Assembly: GCA_945865905.1 (NCBI GenBank)
Contig: CAMBFC010000007.1
Location: 7,706 to 71,705, forward strand
Source of the DNA: Rickettsia typhi
GTDB taxonomy: Bacteria; Pseudomonadota; Alphaproteobacteria; Rickettsiales; UBA1997
Length of the DNA stretch: 64,000 nucleotides
Reading direction: 5' to 3'
Position numbers and translations under genes: made by a program. Within the stretch, counting starts at the first letter, position 1. Every line of letters begins with the position of its first letter. This document shows, in pieces, positions 4,515 to 63,921 of this stretch. Under the pieces are notes generated by a model. That model saw nothing but the letters and a program-made list of their open reading frames with translations. It did not search any database and was not told where the DNA came from.

Positions 4515-4630
4515 GTGTTTGGATCTCGATTTACAGATGAATCATCTCCTGCTTATTGATTTTATTTCGCGCGCAAGCACAGCTACATAAAATCAATAAG
4601 CAGGAGATGATTCGTCTGTAACGCACAGCG
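4515..4630 (+). repeat. Family-A hairpin repeat, copy A1
   Basis: Terminus GTGTTTGGATCTCGATTT. Hairpin 4533-4619 has 32-nt arms with one T:G, around the conserved loop ATTTCGCGCGCAAGCACAGCTACAT. Tail TAACGCACAGC. Confidence 0.9.
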
Positions 4631-10047: not shown

Positions 10048-10107
10048 TTATGAAAAAATGCTTTATTGTCTTAGAAAATTTATTGTGCTTTAAGAACTAT
10101 AATAAAC

Positions 10108-12197: not shown

Positions 12198-12568
12198 TAG
12201 ATCTCGTTTTACAGCTTAATTATCTGTTGAAATTGAATTTATTTATCGCAAGTAAATCATTTTATTTTGCGCGCAAGCACAGCTACATAAAATGATTTAC
12301 TTGCGATAAATAAATTCAATTTCAACAGATAATTAAGCTGTAACGCACCAATTTTGTTAGTTTGTTTTAAATATTCTGCAAAGGACTTGTTGTTAGTTTT
12401 TTGCAAAAGATTTACGCATTATTCGTAAGATAGATTGATTGTCTAATTAGGGGCTCTGAGGCGAGTTCTGCTTTTATCGCAAGCTACGCTTGCTTTAATC
12501 AGATGAAAGCGGTGTCTGAGCAGCAGAGCCCCTAATTAGACAATCAATCTATCGTGAAAACGAGATCC
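12198..12568. repeat. Composite ~370-bp repeat element: terminus, family-A hairpin A2, spacer, family-B hairpin B1 (inverted core), inverted terminus
   Basis: TAGATCTCGTTTT at 12198 and AAAACGAGATC ending at 12567 are inverted repeats. A2 hairpin 12211-12341 has perfect 54-nt arms around ATTTTGCGCGCAAGCACAGCTACAT. B1 hairpin is 12429-12553. Confidence 0.9.
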
Positions 12569-12621: not shown

Positions 12622-13440
12622 ATGATTAATCGCAAAACTTCAGTTCATCTACAAGATTTTCCTGACACTTCTTTTTTTGATAGCAATCAAGAATTAGTCG
12701 CCGATATGGATCTTGTTCGTGCTATATGCAGCACGGCTCTATCAATTCGTGATAATAAAAATTTGCGCGTGAGATTGCCGTTAAATGAGTTGAAAGTGAT
12801 TGGTAAAATTGCCAATAGAATATTGCCTTTCAAAGAAATTATCGCCGAAGAAGTAAATGTAAAAAATATTGTAATTGAAGAAAAAATCGAAGGAACTGCT
12901 GAGTTAAAATTGCAAATTAATTTCAAAAAAATTGGTGCAAAATATGGTTCGCGAGTTAAAGAAATCAATGAGGCAGCGCGCAAAGGTGAATGGAAAAAAA
13001 TCGCCGAAAAAGAAATTGAAATTGCTGGCATAAAATTGATTGATGATGAGTTTGAAATTAAATTGATGACCAATAATCAGAACGATAAAAAATTTGTGAT
13101 TGCAGCACTTTCAACCAATGATTGCTTGGTTTCGCTTGATATTGAAGTTTCGCAAGAACTTGCTGATGAAGGTGTGGCGCGTGATATTGTTCGCGCAATT
13201 CAACAAAGCCGCAAAACCGCTGATCTTAATGTTTCTGATCGAATTGAAATCATGCTTTTTTCACCAAATAAAATGATTTTGCAAGTGGCAGAAAAATTTT
13301 CTTCTTATATTTTGCAACAGGTTTTAGGCTTGAATTTAAAGGTTGCAAGTGATATCGAAGAAGTTAAGTCGCAAGCAAAATTTTTCTCCGAAACAAAAAT
13401 TGATGATGGCGAAATTGCCATCGGTATCAGCAATAAATAA
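12622..13440 (+). CDS. ileS: Isoleucyl-tRNA synthetase C-terminal fragment (N-terminally truncated; pseudogene or split gene)
   Basis: 272-aa ORF starting ...SVHLQDFPDTS..., matching only the last quarter (anticodon-binding/C-terminal region) of type-2 IleRS. The upstream sequence is repeat element, not ileS. Confidence 0.6.
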   Translation: MINRKTSVHLQDFPDTSFFDSNQELVADMDLVRAICSTALSIRDNKNLRVRLPLNELKVIGKIANRILPFKEIIAEEVNVKNIVIEEKIEGTAELKLQINFKKIGAKYGSRVKEINEAARKGEWKKIAEKEIEIAGIKLIDDEFEIKLMTNNQNDKKFVIAALSTNDCLVSLDIEVSQELADEGVARDIVRAIQQSRKTADLNVSDRIEIMLFSPNKMILQVAEKFSSYILQQVLGLNLKVASDIEEVKSQAKFFSETKIDDGEIAIGISNK

Positions 13441-19643: not shown

Positions 19644-20423
19644 TTACTTATTTTTTACTATCAAAAATAATCCTAGCAAAATCAGTGGCAGCGATAAAAT
19701 TTGCCCCATTGTGATTTGTGCAAATAAAAACCCAATCTGCTCATCGGGTTCACGAAAATTTTCAATGATCATGCGAGAAATTCCGTAGCCGATTAAAAAC
19801 AATCCGCTCAAGCTTCCGCGGCGTTTTTGAATTTGTGTAAATTTGCTTAATCCAAATAAAATTATAAATAGCAAAATGCCTTCAAGCGCCGCTTCATATA
19901 GTTGGCTGGGGTGTCGTGGTTGCTCTCCAGCATTAGGAAAAATCACGCCAAAGCTAGAGCCTGTTATTCTGCCATAAAGTTCCATATTTATAAAATTGGC
20001 GATTCTGCCAAAAAATAATCCTACGGGAGCAATAATTGCCACTGAATCCATCAATTGCAAAAAATTAATTTTATATTTGCGGGCAAAAAGCCACATTCCC
20101 AAAATTACCCCGCAAAGCCCGCCATGGAAGGACATTCCGCCATGCCATACTGCAAAAATTTCTAGTGGATCGGTGAGAAAATATTCAAAATTATAGAATA
20201 AAACATAGCCAACACGGCCACCTAAAATAATAGAGAGAATAGCCCAGACCAGCCAGTTTTCGTAGGCTTCTGGAGGCATTATTTTATGTTGCTGATTTTG
20301 TTTTTTGAGGAAAAACATTGCGCATAAAATGCCGGCGATATAGGCGAGGGAGTACCATCTGATGGCTAGCGGGCCTAGTTGTATCAAGACCGGATCAATG
20401 TTTGGTAAGATTATTGGAAACAT
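19644..20423 (-). CDS. lgt: Prolipoprotein diacylglyceryl transferase
   Basis: Polytopic, 259 aa, with the Lgt signature GRIANFINMELYGR and HGGLCG. Confidence 0.9.
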   Translation of the reverse strand: MFPIILPNIDPVLIQLGPLAIRWYSLAYIAGILCAMFFLKKQNQQHKIMPPEAYENWLVWAILSIILGGRVGYVLFYNFEYFLTDPLEIFAVWHGGMSFHGGLCGVILGMWLFARKYKINFLQLMDSVAIIAPVGLFFGRIANFINMELYGRITGSSFGVIFPNAGEQPRHPSQLYEAALEGILLFIILFGLSKFTQIQKRRGSLSGLFLIGYGISRMIIENFREPDEQIGFLFAQITMGQILSLPLILLGLFLIVKNK

Positions 20424-20431
20424 GTGCTGAA

Positions 20432-20655
20432 GTTATAAATTTTTGTGCTATTCTATATTGAGAAAATTCAGTTAATTTAGAAAGTAAGTTAATTAGAAGG
20501 AGAGGCTCTGCTGCTCAGACACCGCGTTCATCTGATTAAAGCAAGCGTAGCTTGCGATGAAACGCAGAACTTGCCTCAGAGCCTCTCCTCCTAATTAACT
20601 TACTTTCTAAATTAACTGAATTTTCTCAATATAGAATAGCACAAAAATTTATAAC
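20432..20655 (+). repeat. Family-B hairpin repeat, copy B2, with ~79-nt arms filling the lgt/queC divergent intergenic region
   Basis: Core GGCTCTGCTGCTCAGACACCGCGTTCATCTGATTAAAGCAAGCGTAGCTTGCGATGAAACGCAGAACTTGCCTCAGAGCC, flanked by inverted arms with a single mismatch. Confidence 0.92.
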
Positions 20656-20663
20656 CAGATTTA

Positions 20664-21353
20664 ATGAAAAAAGCGATAGTTTTATTCAGTGGCGGGCTAG
20701 ATTCTACAACGGTGTTGGCGATAGCCCAAAATGCTGGGTTTGAGGTTTATGCGCTGAGTTTTTCTTATGGGCAACGCCATAAAGTTGAGTTAGATTTTGC
20801 CAAAAAAATCGCACAAAAATCGCGCGTAGCCGAACATAAAATTGCCGAAATTGACCTACGAATCTTTGGCGCATCTGCTTTAACGGCCGAAATAGCGGTG
20901 CCAAAAAATCGTGAATTGGCAGAAAAAAATATTCCAATAACTTATGTTCCAGCGCGCAACACCATCTTTCTATCCTACGCGCTAGCCTATGCAGAGGTTG
21001 TTGGTGCTAGTGATATTTTTATCGGCGTGAACGCGGTTGATTATAGTGGATATCCCGATTGTCGACCAGAATTTATTTTTGCTTTTGAAAAATTAGCAAA
21101 TTTAGCAACTGCTACGGGCTCTACAAAATCAAGTGATTTCAAGATTTGCGCTCCATTAATAAAGATGAGTAAAAAAGAAATCATCGAAGCGGGAATCAAG
21201 TTGGGCGTAGATTATTCAAGCACTTACAGCTGTTATGATCCAATAATTCGCGATAAAGAAGTGCTTTCTTGCGGCAAATGTGATTCTTGTCAACTAAGGC
21301 TGGCAGGCTTTCGCGAGGCTAAAATAGAAGATAAATCCAATTATGTTTCTTAG
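20664..21353 (+). CDS. queC: 7-cyano-7-deazaguanine synthase
   Basis: PP-loop LFSGGLDS and C-terminal zinc cysteines CYDP...CGKCDSC. Confidence 0.92.
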
Positions 21354-25873: not shown

Positions 25874-26240
25874 TAGATCTCGTCCTCGGCAAGGCTTGAA
25901 GTGAGGGGCTCTGCTGCTCAGACACCGCACCCATCTGATTTAAGCGAGCGTAGCTCGCGATGGGATGCAGAACTCGCCTCAGAGCCCCTCACTTCAAGCC
26001 TTGCCTTTCTTGGGCTTTTGTGGGTTTTTGGCTTTTTGGGTTTGGATTTGTGCATTGATTTATCTGGTATTAATGGTTTTTACACATTATTCGTAAGATA
26101 GATTGATTGTTTGGGGAAGGGGCTCTGAGGCGACTTCTGCGCTTCATCGCAAGCTACGCTTGCTTTAATCAGATGAACTCGGTGTCTGAGCAGCAGAGCC
26201 CCTTCCCCAAACAATCAATCTATTACAAAAACGAGATCTA
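25874..26240. repeat. Composite ~367-bp repeat element: terminus, family-B hairpin B3 (+), T/G-rich spacer, family-B hairpin B4 (-), inverted terminus
   Basis: TAGATCTCGT at 25874 and ACGAGATCTA at 26231-26240 are inverted repeats. B3 is 25888-26005 with perfect 26-nt arms. B4 is 26098-26223 with perfect 30-nt arms. Confidence 0.92.
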
Positions 26241-33655: not shown

Positions 33656-33673
33656 AATTTTTTTAAATTTTAA

Positions 33674-34762: not shown

Positions 34763-34875
34763 TTTAGATTGTGCCTCACAGATAAATTATTGAGCGGAGG
34801 TCATTTTATTTCGCACGCAAGCACAGCTACATAAAACGACCTTCGCTCAATAATTTATCTGTAACGAAAAGTGCG
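34763..34875 (+). repeat. Family-A hairpin repeat, copy A3
   Basis: Degenerate terminus TTTTAGATTG. Hairpin 34778-34862 has 31-nt arms with two transition mismatches around ATTTCGCACGCAAGCACAGCTACAT. Tail TAACG. Confidence 0.88.
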
Positions 34876-34903: not shown

Positions 34904-36019
34904 ATGAAAAACCTAATAGGATTAACCAAAGAGCAACTAACGCAAGAGCTTATAAACATTGGCGAGAAGCCCTTTCGTGCCGCGCAAATTTGGAATTGGA
35001 TTTATGTTCGTGGTGTGCAAGATTTTTCTGCGATGAGCAACATTTCGAAGGCGACGCAAGAAGTTTTGGCAAAAAATTTTACCCTAGCGCGGCCCATGAT
35101 CCACAAGGATTTGCTCGCTTCTGATGGCACAAGAAAATGGCTGGTAAAATTTGCCGATGGCAATCAAGTTGAGGCAGTTTTTATTCCTGAAGAAACTCGC
35201 GGCACGCTCTGCATCTCGTCGCAAGTCGGTTGCACTTTGGCTTGCAAATTTTGTCATACTGGCACGCAAACTTTGGTGCGCAACCTTGAAGCCTCTGAAA
35301 TTGTGGGTCAAATCATGATCGCTAAAGATTTATTGGATGATTGGAAAAAAATCGGTGTTGGCGATGTAGCAGCTTCACCATCGCGGCAAAAAATCACCAA
35401 TGTAGTGTTTATGGGCATGGGCGAGCCTTTTTATAATTATGAAAATGTTGCCGCAACCGCAAAAATCCTTAATAATGCCGATGGCTTGAGTTTATCTTCG
35501 CGAAGAATCACAATTTCTACTTCGGGCTTAGTGCCAGAAATTTTACGCATGTCAAAAGAGCTAAAAACTGCTCTAGCAATATCGCTGCACGCCACGAATG
35601 ACGAGCTTAGAACCAATATTATGGCGATCAATAAAAGATACCCTCTCGATGAATTAATGAAGGCCTGCAAAATTTATAACAATGAAAATCCGGGGCAAAA
35701 AGTTACTTTTGAATATGTGTTGCTGCGCGATGTTAATGATCGCGATGAACATGCGCGCGAGCTGATTTCACTGATTAATAAATATAATTTAAATGCTAAA
35801 ATAAACCTGATTCCATTTAATCCGTGGATGTCTTGCGGCTATGAAAGATCTAGCGATGAACGCATTGCGCAATTTCAAAAAATTCTGAAAAATAGTGATG
35901 TAGTGGCGCCAATTCGCAAAACTCGTGGTGATGATGTGATGGCGGCTTGCGGTCAGTTAAAATCTGATTCGCAGCGCATTTCTAAGCGCCAAAAAAAAGA
36001 TGATGTGGTTGGTGGTTGA
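34904..36019 (+). CDS. rlmN: 23S rRNA/tRNA adenine-C2 methyltransferase RlmN (radical SAM)
   Basis: FRAAQIWNWIY N-terminus, radical-SAM cluster CTLACKFCHTG, C-terminal AACGQL. Confidence 0.93.
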   Translation: MKNLIGLTKEQLTQELINIGEKPFRAAQIWNWIYVRGVQDFSAMSNISKATQEVLAKNFTLARPMIHKDLLASDGTRKWLVKFADGNQVEAVFIPEETRGTLCISSQVGCTLACKFCHTGTQTLVRNLEASEIVGQIMIAKDLLDDWKKIGVGDVAASPSRQKITNVVFMGMGEPFYNYENVAATAKILNNADGLSLSSRRITISTSGLVPEILRMSKELKTALAISLHATNDELRTNIMAINKRYPLDELMKACKIYNNENPGQKVTFEYVLLRDVNDRDEHARELISLINKYNLNAKINLIPFNPWMSCGYERSSDERIAQFQKILKNSDVVAPIRKTRGDDVMAACGQLKSDSQRISKRQKKDDVVGG

Positions 36020-36160
36020 AAAAGATGGGGATGGGAGTTGGATTGGGATGCTCTGCTGCTCAGACACCGCGCCCATCTGATTTAAGCAAGCGTAGCTTGC
36101 GATGGGACGCAGAACTCGCCTCAGAGCATCCCAATCCAACTCCCATCCCCATCTTTTTCA
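36017..36160 (+). repeat. Family-B hairpin repeat, copy B5 (perfect 39-nt arms; left arm starts on the rlmN stop codon)
   Basis: TGAAAAAGATGGGGATGGGAGTTGGATTGGGATGCTCTG ... core ... CAGAGCATCCCAATCCAACTCCCATCCCCATCTTTTTCA. Confidence 0.92.
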
Positions 36161-36275
36161 ATTCTATTTTTTTTGGCAAAAAAATAGAAGATTAAATAAA
36201 GATTGTTATTTGCTTTTACAAATTCCTATAATTAATTTCGACTTAATAGTTATTGAATAATTAATTAAAATTTTT

Positions 36276-38198: not shown

Positions 38199-38340
38199 GG
38201 CTGAAGAGTCAGTTAGGTAATGCTTGAATGCGAGTTCCATTTTCATCGCAAGCTACGCTTGCTTTAATTCAGATGAAAAGGGTGTCTGAGCAGGCGAGTA
38301 TTACCTAACTGGCTCTTCAGCCGAGGGCAAGATCTATAGT
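38199..38340 (-). repeat. Family-B hairpin repeat, copy B6 (degenerate core) plus degenerate terminus
   Basis: Arms GGCTGAAGAGTCAGTTAGGTAATGCT/AGTATTACCTAACTGGCTCTTCAGCC (two transitions). Apical core CATCGCAAGCTACGCTTGCTTTAATTCAGATG is retained. Tail CCGAGGGCAAGATCTA. Confidence 0.8.
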
Positions 38341-44698: not shown

Positions 44699-44764
44699 TT
44701 TTAATTTCTATAAAGTTATAATTGACCATTAGAAAATTTTGACTTCTTGAATTTACATATAATC

Positions 44765-50076: not shown

Positions 50077-50178
50077 GATAAATCATCGACTGCTTATTGA
50101 TTTTATGTAGCTGTGCTTGCGCGCGAAATAAAATCAATAAGCAGTCGATGATTTATCGTTAAAGGAGATCTAAACACA
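50077..50178 (-). repeat. Family-A hairpin repeat, copy A4 (inverted orientation)
   Basis: Hairpin 50077-50157 has perfect 29-nt arms around ATGTAGCTGTGCTTGCGCGCGAAAT. Terminus GGAGATCTAAACACA on the right. Confidence 0.9.
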
Positions 50179-53562: not shown

Positions 53563-54318
53563 ATGAATATTTTAATAAGTGGTGCCAATAGCGGTATAGG
53601 CCGCGCCCTTGCAATCGCATATTCTGCGCCTAACATAAATTTATTTTTATGTGCGCGCAATTTGCAAAAGCTACAAGAGGTTAAAGAGATTTGTCGTGAA
53701 TTAAAAGCTAATGTTTTTATTAAATCACTTGATGTTAAAAATGAAGAAGAATCGCGCGCATGGATTCAAAAAATAGAAGAAAATTACCCGCTAGATTTAA
53801 TAATTGCCAGTGCCGGAATCTCTGCTGGCACTAGTGGCGGCATTGAAAGCTCTCAACAAATCAAAGAAATTTTTTCAACTAATATCTACGGAATTCTCAA
53901 CATTATTAATCCCGCGATTGAAAAAATGAAGCAAAGAAAATCGGGGCAAATAGCGCTACTAGCCTCTCTAGCTGGCTTTCGAGGTCTACCATCTGCTCCA
54001 GCATATTCTGCTAGCAAAGCGGCGGTTAAGGTTTATGGTGAGGCTTTGCGCGGCAACTTAGCTGAGTTTGGAATCAAGGTAAATGTGGTTTGCCCTGGTT
54101 ATGTAAAAACCCCAATGACTGATGTGAATGATTTTCCAATGCCATTTTTAATGCCAGTTGAAAAAGCAGCAAAAATAATAAAAAATGGCATCAGAAAAAA
54201 TAAATCACGAATCGCTTTTCCATTTCCACTTTATTTTGTGGTATGGCTTGCAGCCTTGCTTCCAACCAGTTTAACCGATAGAATTTTTGCAAAATTGCCC
54301 AAGAAAAAGGCTTTATAA
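53563..54318 (+). CDS. Short-chain dehydrogenase/reductase (SDR) family oxidoreductase
   Basis: Cofactor motif ISGANSGIG, NAG-like ASAG, catalytic YSASK. Confidence 0.88.
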   Translation: MNILISGANSGIGRALAIAYSAPNINLFLCARNLQKLQEVKEICRELKANVFIKSLDVKNEEESRAWIQKIEENYPLDLIIASAGISAGTSGGIESSQQIKEIFSTNIYGILNIINPAIEKMKQRKSGQIALLASLAGFRGLPSAPAYSASKAAVKVYGEALRGNLAEFGIKVNVVCPGYVKTPMTDVNDFPMPFLMPVEKAAKIIKNGIRKNKSRIAFPFPLYFVVWLAALLPTSLTDRIFAKLPKKKAL

Positions 54319-54329
54319 AGTGGGAGAGG

Positions 54330-54507
54330 GTAGAGAATTAGGTTTGAGTTATAAATTATCTCGTGAGTATGGGAGAGGAGCTCTGAGGCGAGTTCTGCGC
54401 TTCATCGCAAGCTACGCTTGCTTAAATCAGATGAACGCGGTGTCTGAGCAGCAGAGCTCCTCTCCCATACTCACGAGATAATTTATAACTAAAACCTAAT
54501 TCTCTAC
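54330..54507 (-). repeat. Family-B hairpin repeat, copy B7 (56-nt arms; right arm overlaps the last 3 codons plus stop of the downstream gene)
   Basis: Arms GTAGAGAATTAGGTTTGAGTTATAAATTATCTCGTGAGTATGGGAGAGGAGCTCTG and its complement, with one G:A mismatch. Typical inverted B core. Confidence 0.92.
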
Positions 54508-63784: not shown

Positions 63785-63921
63785 TTTTATTTAGATCTTA
63801 TGCCCTTGCTTAAGCCTGCCTTCAACAAATAATTCACCTGCTGTTTATTAATTTTATTTCGCGCGCAAGCACAGCTACATAAAATCAATAAACAGCAGGT
63901 GAATTATTTGTAACGCACAGC
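63785..63921 (+). repeat. Family-A hairpin repeat, copy A5
   Basis: Degenerate terminus TTTAGATCTTATG. Hairpin 63826-63910 has 31-nt arms with one A:C around ATTTCGCGCGCAAGCACAGCTACAT. Tail TAACGCACAGC. Confidence 0.9.

Follow-up and report, generated by a model that had tools for sequence, protein, structure and literature searches.

The Correia elements of Neisseria (CREE/NEMIS) are small, non-coding, palindrome-like intergenic repeats with conserved 26-bp terminal inverted repeats, promoter boxes within these repeats, a TA duplication and an IHF site. Their ends can provide promoters for adjacent genes, and the elements undergo inversion in place (PMC10969869). REP, REPIN and BIME sequences are abundant intergenic hairpin repeats, often located at gene 3' ends and built of mosaic modules, in which G.T pairs are tolerated on one strand, suggesting a single-stranded form. 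REPs are 20-40 nt long and carry a GTAG/CGTC tag at one end (PMC3733652); their stems are conserved and they are RAYT-mobilised. In fim-type invertons, short inverted repeats flank a segment that is seen in both orientations beside genes; the promoter lies in the invertible part, a dedicated recombinase is involved and both orientations occur within one population. The reduced, AT-rich genomes of the Rickettsiales type contain Rickettsia palindromic elements (RPE), palindromic repeats that are conserved over their full length and inserted in frame into coding genes. A further relevant process is quasipalindrome template-switch mutagenesis, known from E. coli and yeast, which has been described for short repeats and single events. 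Template switching between inverted repeats leads to homogenisation of the arms and inversion of the spacer (PMC8604942) and extends arm identity outward (PMC3820800; the E. coli system is described in PMC7202029). It has not been described as a mode of upkeep or growth of a multi-copy family with 40-80-nt arms that overwrites promoters or gene ends.

Here we analyse a palindrome, B2, in the divergent spacer between lgt and queC within a 64-kb stretch of DNA (the window). In its effect, as a repeat that would supply or duplicate promoters and can invert, B2 is most like a Correia element, and in its dynamics it is like quasipalindrome template switching, all three patterns of which recur in B2, its orthologues and a second window copy, B7. 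The repeat family of B2, family B, shares with Correia elements the small size, the lack of coding capacity, the palindrome-like structure and the intergenic location, but the B arms are copy-specific, reach 81 nt and evolve in concert, no target-site duplication is present, and it is the centre, not the ends, that is conserved. There is no sequence similarity between the two, and the B promoter boxes are only weak -10-like matches. Neither of the two MITE hallmarks looked for in family B, conserved terminal inverted repeats and target-site duplication, was found. In contrast to the conserved stems of REPs, B elements have variable stems and a conserved apical domain; size and layout also differ, GTAG occurs only in the apical loop and no RAYT was seen in the 64 kb. 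B elements are intergenic and touch only gene ends, which sets them apart from RPE as described. As for an invertible switch, the orientation of the B2 core is fixed per species and no recombinase is found among the neighbouring genes. We classify family B as a variant within the class of palindromic intergenic (MITE/REP-like) repeats, distinct in its conserved centre, its concerted copy-specific arms and the growth of these arms into flanking DNA.

A 224-bp palindrome occupies the lgt-queC spacer

The spacer between lgt and queC (20424-20663) is 240 bp long, and the palindrome occupies 224 bp of it. The spacer and its two flanking genes are organised as follows.

19644-20423, minus strand: lgt, prolipoprotein diacylglyceryl transferase (open reading frame; PF01790 on the identical protein; homologues)
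20424-20431, minus strand: 8-nt gap between the lgt-side arm and the lgt ATG, TTCAGCAC read towards lgt
20432-20510: left (lgt-side) arm of B2, 79 nt (repeat finder)
20433-20459, minus strand: lgt-side outer 27 nt, AATATAGAATAGCACAAAAATTTATAA read towards lgt, candidate lgt promoter/leader (arm alignment)
20511-20576, plus strand: core of B2, 66 nt
20577-20655: right (queC-side) arm of B2, 79 nt (repeat finder)
20628-20654, plus strand: queC-side outer 27 nt, candidate queC promoter/leader (arm alignment)
20656-20663, plus strand: 8-nt gap between the queC-side arm and the queC ATG, CAGATTTA, no conservation in relatives
20664-21353, plus strand: queC, 7-cyano-7-deazaguanine synthase (open reading frame; PF06508)

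The two arms (20432-20510 and 20577-20655, with 66 nt between them) are 99% complementary. The sole mismatch, A20497 opposite C20590, would be a G.U pair in minus-strand RNA. Repeat finding and open reading frame analysis thereby reproduced every detail of the initial annotation, which had reported a 224-bp palindrome at 20432-20655 with arms of about 79 nt and one mismatch in a 240-bp spacer. The two ATG codons, described there as mirror-symmetric, do lie 8 nt outside the arms at positions symmetric about 20543.5. Because one repeat-family hairpin fills their spacer, lgt and queC share an identical upstream sequence of about 79 nt, as had been proposed, and this identity is also present in independent assemblies. 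The lgt-proximal 8 nt contain a TTCAYC-like motif that is kept in all relatives. This conservation identifies 20424-20431 as the native lgt leader, outside the palindrome, and the B2 arm thus ends where the native leader starts.

Fold-back chimeras can create palindromes during assembly, and short-read contigs do break at B2; yet the same structure is present in at least six independent assemblies, with some contigs reading through the core. Proteins identical to the window Lgt and QueC are encoded on contigs from several other samples, and the same arm lies upstream in all of them. The short-read contigs end k-1 nt (30 or 55 nt) inside the arm, as a long inverted repeat predicts. Contigs L004 and L011 read through the B2 core, and the JGI contig L045 contains a fully assembled B2 orthologue with perfect 79-nt arms. 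The fold energy of B2 is -139 to -150 kcal/mol on either strand compared with -45 to -48 kcal/mol for shuffled sequences (z about -22, none of 200 shuffles being equal), which excludes a chance palindrome. We consider the probability that B2 is an assembly artefact or a chance palindrome to be negligible.

Palindromes of this kind fragment short-read metagenome assemblies of this lineage systematically and at predictable places. Short-read contigs L001-L012, L020, L026, L030 and L061 stop k-1 nt within palindrome arms.

B2 belongs to a lineage-restricted family with a conserved core and copy-specific arms

B2 is a member of a palindromic repeat family that is restricted to one lineage and has at least 47 complete copies: the window contains seven, a single Baikal MAG eight, and JGI lake contigs the other 32. 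The family core is defined as CTCAGACACC-N5-8-ATCTG-N6-9-GCRAGCGTAGCTYGC flanked by inverted arms. The B2 core at 20511-20576 fits this definition and consists of the following parts.

20511-20523: 5' stretch CTGCTCAGACACC, unpaired and invariant
20524-20532 and 20556-20565: the two stem strands
20533-20540: bulge TGATTAAA
20541-20555: apical hairpin GCAAGC-GTA-GCTTGC
20566-20576: 3' stretch AGAACTTGCCT

The core is asymmetric, with CTGCTCAGACACC, the bulge TGATTWAA, the loop GTA and AGAACTCGCCT as invariant unpaired parts. Its stems covary: 17 of 28 pairs show compensatory changes, 98.8% of cells are paired, and compensatory double changes occupy 205 cells, compared with 47 cells for shuffles and no more than 44 for slid controls. 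The arms of the 47 complete copies measure 15-81 nt (median 40) and are mismatched at 2% of positions, yet their sequence is copy-specific; arms differ among copies beyond about 10-20 nt, and sharing of arm sequence occurs only within sub-families. The few arm mismatches are one-sided. Read in the core(+) orientation, 45 distinct copies (from the window and L013-L059) contain 20 A.C/C.A mismatches but only 2 G.T, meaning that the mismatches are wobble pairs on the complementary strand. This bias suggests that a single-stranded form (RNA or ssDNA) of one defined strand matters for B elements.

Genome, metagenome and viral scans found the B core only in a freshwater lineage labelled Rickettsiales. 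Searching 185,579 species-representative genomes with the core pattern returned one MAG only, 'Rickettsiales bacterium Baikal-deep-G64'; the window's own genome is either outside this set or not assembled through its repeats. The same search of JGI metagenomes returned 27 lake contigs, and a viral contig collection contained no B core. At the gathering threshold of Rfam, B was unmatched and the window yielded two tRNAs only; a permissive scan added only sub-threshold look-alikes of miRNA hairpins. No direct repeat of 5 nt or longer flanks any of the 45 distinct copies, and none of the 11 open reading frames of the 64-kb window that were scanned against Pfam matched a transposase family.

Most B copies are located at gene 3' ends. 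In the window, B2 is the sole copy in a divergent spacer, and every other copy of B and of a second palindromic family, A, lies downstream of genes. The remaining B copies of the window are listed below.

12427-12555, minus strand: B1
25888-26005, plus strand: B3, forming a convergent pair with B4
26098-26223, minus strand: B4
36016-36161, plus strand: B5, whose arm begins at the stop codon of an rlmN-like open reading frame (34904-36019)
38199-38322, minus strand: B6, a diverged copy
54330-54507, minus strand: B7, with 56-nt arms

Several further features of the repeats were observed. B copies are often paired at a distance of 100-220 bp, and in all seven pairs a core(+) copy is followed by a core(-) copy in convergent arrangement (window 25888-26223; L013 4857-5293; L046 2759-3093; L047 1-355; L048 2080-2442; L053 392-722; L056 64-374), suggesting a larger composite unit. 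Asymmetric conserved boxes abut many copies, TAGATCTCG(Y)CCTC outside the 5' arm and TTTCTTG outside the 3' arm (for example at window positions 25874-25887, 26006-26012 and 38323-38336), and in those short-armed copies the core is never flipped relative to the flank boxes. In one sub-family, another hairpin, CTATTTTTTTTGGnAAAAAAAATAG, invariably comes after the B copy (36164-36190 after B5 in the window; also in L036, L040, L048, L052 and L053). Family A has five copies in the window (4531-4621, 12209-12343, 34778-34862, 50077-50157 and 63825-63911), with a conserved centre ATTTTATTTCGCGCGCAAGCACAGCTACATAAAAT, an 11-nt loop and copy-specific arms of 35-62 nt. A cluster of A2 and B1 lies directly upstream of the open reading frame 12622-13440, which comprises only the C-terminal part, anticodon-binding plus DUF5915, of a class I tRNA ligase and could represent either a fragment or a split gene.

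The B insertion is derived and the ancestral spacer is short

The lgt-queC regions of relatives were fetched via Lgt homologues. Wherever the contig of a relative reaches both genes, lgt and queC lie next to each other in divergent orientation, and the spacers (with Lgt identity to the window) are as follows.

L032 (77%): 37 bp, no palindrome
L031 (86%): 62 bp, no palindrome
L027 (81%): 119 bp, no palindrome
L063 (79%): 119 bp, none in a palindrome scan of the spacer
Window, L045 and L019-22 (100%, 95% and 93%): 240 bp in the fully assembled cases, B element whose arms are clearly orthologous
L030 (86%): contig broken within a sequence resembling an arm, probably B
L023 and L060 (83% and 86%): 195 bp, C-type palindrome with an unrelated core
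L062 (81%): at least 144 bp on a contig that begins inside the spacer, D-type core with imperfect arms

The four palindrome-free spacers of 37-119 bp (L032, L031, L027 and L063) identify a short spacer without a palindrome as the ancestral state and the B insertion as derived. According to the initial annotation, finding the same long palindrome without a B core in relatives would place the palindrome before the element; we looked for B2 arms lacking the B core in these relatives and found none. The palindromes of the other relatives (L023 2820-2975; L060 183-366; L062 1-127) are of other types. The C-type core is GGTCAGCTGT..GTGACC, with perfect arms of up to 82 nt, and is absent from the window; the D-type core is TGCTCAGAGGCAAGCCAATTCGC. 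In L060, the 82-nt perfect arms of the C-type palindrome stop 4 nt short of one start codon and 7 nt short of the other. The lgt-queC spacer has thus been colonised repeatedly and independently by different palindromic elements.

Arm differences are mirrored and the core is inverted between species

Alignment of the orthologous copies from the window, L045 and L022 identified nine arm differences between species, each of which is mirrored in both arms, together with 2-3 unmirrored ones. The orientation of the core relative to the genes also differs between species. Its 3' end, in the core(+) sense, faces queC in the window, L004 and L011 and faces lgt in L045, L019, L021 and L022. L019, L021 and L022 are three independent contigs of a relative at 93-94% identity, and two of them were assembled at k=141, exceeding the arm length. 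Within each species, the core orientation is constant across independent samples.

From the mirrored differences and the inverted core we infer that polymerase template switching acts at B2. The arm copying looks continuous and not like one event at the time when the element arose. In principle, selection on a single-stranded structure could also produce mirrored changes, a possibility with which the strand-biased mismatches (20 A.C against 2 G.T) agree.

B7 has absorbed flanking coding DNA

The outer 12 nt of the right arm of B7 (54496-54507) are the last three codons of modA and its stop codon (V-E-N-stop, from ...GFIVEN*). The ending ...GFIVE(N) is shared by ModA homologues with as little as 55% identity, also in lineages without detected B, and in a relative modA terminates in GTAGATTAA at this position. 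The inverted counterpart of the codons sits 11 nt beyond the neighbouring gene, which identifies modA as their source. The B7 arm thus holds native coding sequence, and outer arms need not be imported. Comparison with L066 as an orthologous empty site for B7 was limited to the modA end because synteny differs.

A copy in the Baikal MAG (L018, 5837-6000) has arms that overlap aroA by 13 nt and leuD by 6 nt, and the C-terminal residues of AroA there may be encoded by copied DNA. Many B copies end 6-9 nt short of a gene boundary, which is what arm growth limited by selection would give.

A-like outer arms are seen on five B copies (L014:4032, L017:666, L033:922, L034:582 and L050:2137), indicating that A and B modules are nested or exchanged. 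They also raise the idea that B cores insert into pre-existing hairpins. Such insertion cannot explain arms that contain modA codons, but it is a possible contributor to arm diversity.

The outer arm is a candidate promoter or leader of both genes

lgt is followed by the convergent gene sucB and queC by the convergent gene hemH. Both are therefore monocistronic, and each needs its own upstream promoter. All nine variable arm columns among the three orthologous species copies (window, L045 and L022) are confined to the inner 52 nt, whereas the outer 27 nt are invariant (p about 0.02, a rough value from column counts). A comparable pattern is found in the C-type palindromes of L023 and L060, where the gene-proximal 22 nt are conserved and the middle has diverged beyond alignment. 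On the strength of these two patterns we regard the outer arm as the probable working promoter or leader of both genes; if a promoter or leader has been duplicated, it most likely lies in the outer 27 nt.

The -10-like sequence noted within the arm by the initial annotation is indeed present, as TATAGAAT at 20630-20637. On the queC side, TAGAAT lies at 20632-20637 and TATAAC at 20650-20655, 8 nt from the ATG; the lgt-side outer block likewise contains TAGAAT, and TATAAC when position 20432 is included. TAGAAT is replaced by TATAAT in L030, and TATAAC by TATAAT in L022 and L030. A sigma-70 promoter calls for -35 and -10 hexamers 16-18 nt apart; a strict scan of 20300-20800 for such promoters gave no arm site above the shuffled background, and the host promoter consensus may differ; the lone site in this interval lies partly inside lgt and does not exceed shuffles either. 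No convincing -35 box was evident by eye in the arms. No terminator-like site was found in 20300-20800 and no T-run follows the arms, so the B2 hairpin is not a predicted intrinsic terminator. Upstream regions of the window are A/T-rich, and in only one of 49 window genes do the 20 nt next to the start include a Shine-Dalgarno-like motif. Its absence at lgt and queC is therefore uninformative, and an argument for leaderless mRNAs built on it was dropped.

Other divergent spacers in the window are as short as 18 bp (33656-33673), 48 bp (44699-44746) and 60 bp (10048-10107), and one divergent pair of open reading frames overlaps by 58 nt (53563-53620). Given such spacers, promoters can lie inside neighbouring genes in this genome, and the old lgt and queC promoters could still be in use.

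The outer arm probably has a local origin

The inner 20 nt or so of the B2 arm (the GGAGAGGCTCTG side) are common to other B copies. The outer 55 nt or so occur nowhere else in the 334 kb of sequence that were fetched, 46 other copies among them. This uniqueness, together with the precedent of B7, favours a local origin of the outer arm, which would then derive from the native upstream region of one of the two genes. The initial annotation had offered two possibilities, that the 5' region of one gene was templated from that of its neighbour when the element arose or that the element itself supplies outward-facing promoters. Templating agrees with the unique outer arm, the mirrored changes and the modA codons in B7, all of them indirect support; the copying itself looks continuous, not confined to the moment when the element arose. 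The annotation had also suggested that element-free relatives would reveal the ancestral arm: the comparison established the short palindrome-free spacer as ancestral, but local alignments of the B2 arm with the spacers of palindrome-free relatives were not significant (p 0.08-0.86), matching neither arm to a native sequence. One hand-picked 17-mer from the lgt side ranked first among 49 upstream regions; none of eight further probes did so. An element-borne box is hinted at by copy L041, whose arm contains ATATAGAAT as well.

Discussion

We propose that a B element entered a short, palindrome-free lgt-queC spacer in an ancestor of the window's species group. Its arms would have been kept near-perfect by DNA-level copying from arm to arm, through intramolecular template switching while the DNA is replicated or repaired, or through gene conversion of equivalent effect. 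Such switching would homogenise the arms, invert the spacer between them and push identity outward into the flanks, so that only 8 nt now separate the palindrome from either start codon. Both arms would then carry the same promoter or leader in their outer 27 nt or so, and two unrelated monocistronic genes would be driven by copies of one region. Taken as a whole (insertion, arm-to-arm copying and a duplicated promoter or leader), we consider this explanation probable, with room for serious doubt.

The whole 79-nt arm, including its -10-like boxes, might instead have arrived with the insertion into a spacer of about 16-40 bp, the element supplying promoters to both genes and nothing being copied from either. 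Bacterial MITEs such as Correia elements do carry end promoters and do invert (PMC10969869), relatives have spacers as short as 37 bp, ATATAGAAT recurs in the L041 arm, and the B2 arm has no significant similarity to the native upstream DNA of relatives. This origin is nonetheless unlikely in our view, given that beyond its inner 20 nt or so the B2 arm is found in none of the 46 other copies and arms are not conserved in the family, that the B7 arm contains native coding sequence, and that most copies sit at gene 3' ends, where promoters are unexpected. The arms need not hold the promoters. B2 could be a selfish insertion transcribed from promoters inside the 5' coding region of the opposite gene, in which case the hairpin would be a 5'-UTR structure, possibly cut by RNase III, and the outer block a leader. 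The 18-, 48- and 60-bp divergent spacers and the 58-nt overlap in the window agree with this arrangement, as do the 37-62-bp lgt-queC spacers of relatives, which force the promoters into the neighbouring genes; the missing T-run, which leaves the hairpin without a predicted terminator function, and a mismatch bias suggesting that the hairpin of one strand matters point the same way. A 5' hairpin of -140 to -150 kcal/mol located 8 nt from the start would, however, probably block or destabilise expression of the essential lgt. Both core orientations are tolerated, and the invariance of the outer arm fits a promoter or leader; we accordingly regard promoters elsewhere as distinctly improbable.

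B2 might also be a dedicated regulatory device, a selected cruciform or an invertible switch that couples or alternates lgt and queC expression. The core is inverted between species and the promoters would be perfectly symmetric. Divergent transcription generates negative supercoiling and thereby favours cruciform extrusion, which would suit such a device. Against this stand the constant orientation within each species (window, L004 and L011; L019, L021 and L022), the absence of a recombinase gene among the neighbours lgt, queC, sucB and hemH, the lack of a functional relationship between lgt and queC, the location of most family members at gene 3' ends and the fact that relatives manage without B. 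We find it very hard to credit that the palindrome was selected for this purpose. Insertion followed by arm-to-arm copying, with a duplicated promoter or leader in the outer arms, remains our preferred explanation of the locus.

If the outer arms are working promoters, a selfish palindromic repeat has replaced a whole divergent control region, and one duplicated promoter would serve a pair of unrelated housekeeping genes, of which one is normally essential. The mirrored substitutions, the flipped core and the arms made of native codons constitute a genomic record of template switching at long inverted repeats over evolutionary time, a process so far studied mostly as single laboratory mutations. 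More tentatively, and on balance we doubt that it holds throughout, the B, A, C and D elements may all be self-extending palindromes, in which a conserved asymmetric core recognised in single-stranded form by some factor nucleates template switching, the arms are homogenised, the core is flipped and one flank is progressively overwritten by the inverted copy of the other until selection on coding or start regions stops the process. If true, a selfish repeat could duplicate a promoter onto a divergent neighbour and rewrite the ends of genes, which would be a route of regulatory rewiring undescribed for bacterial repeats.
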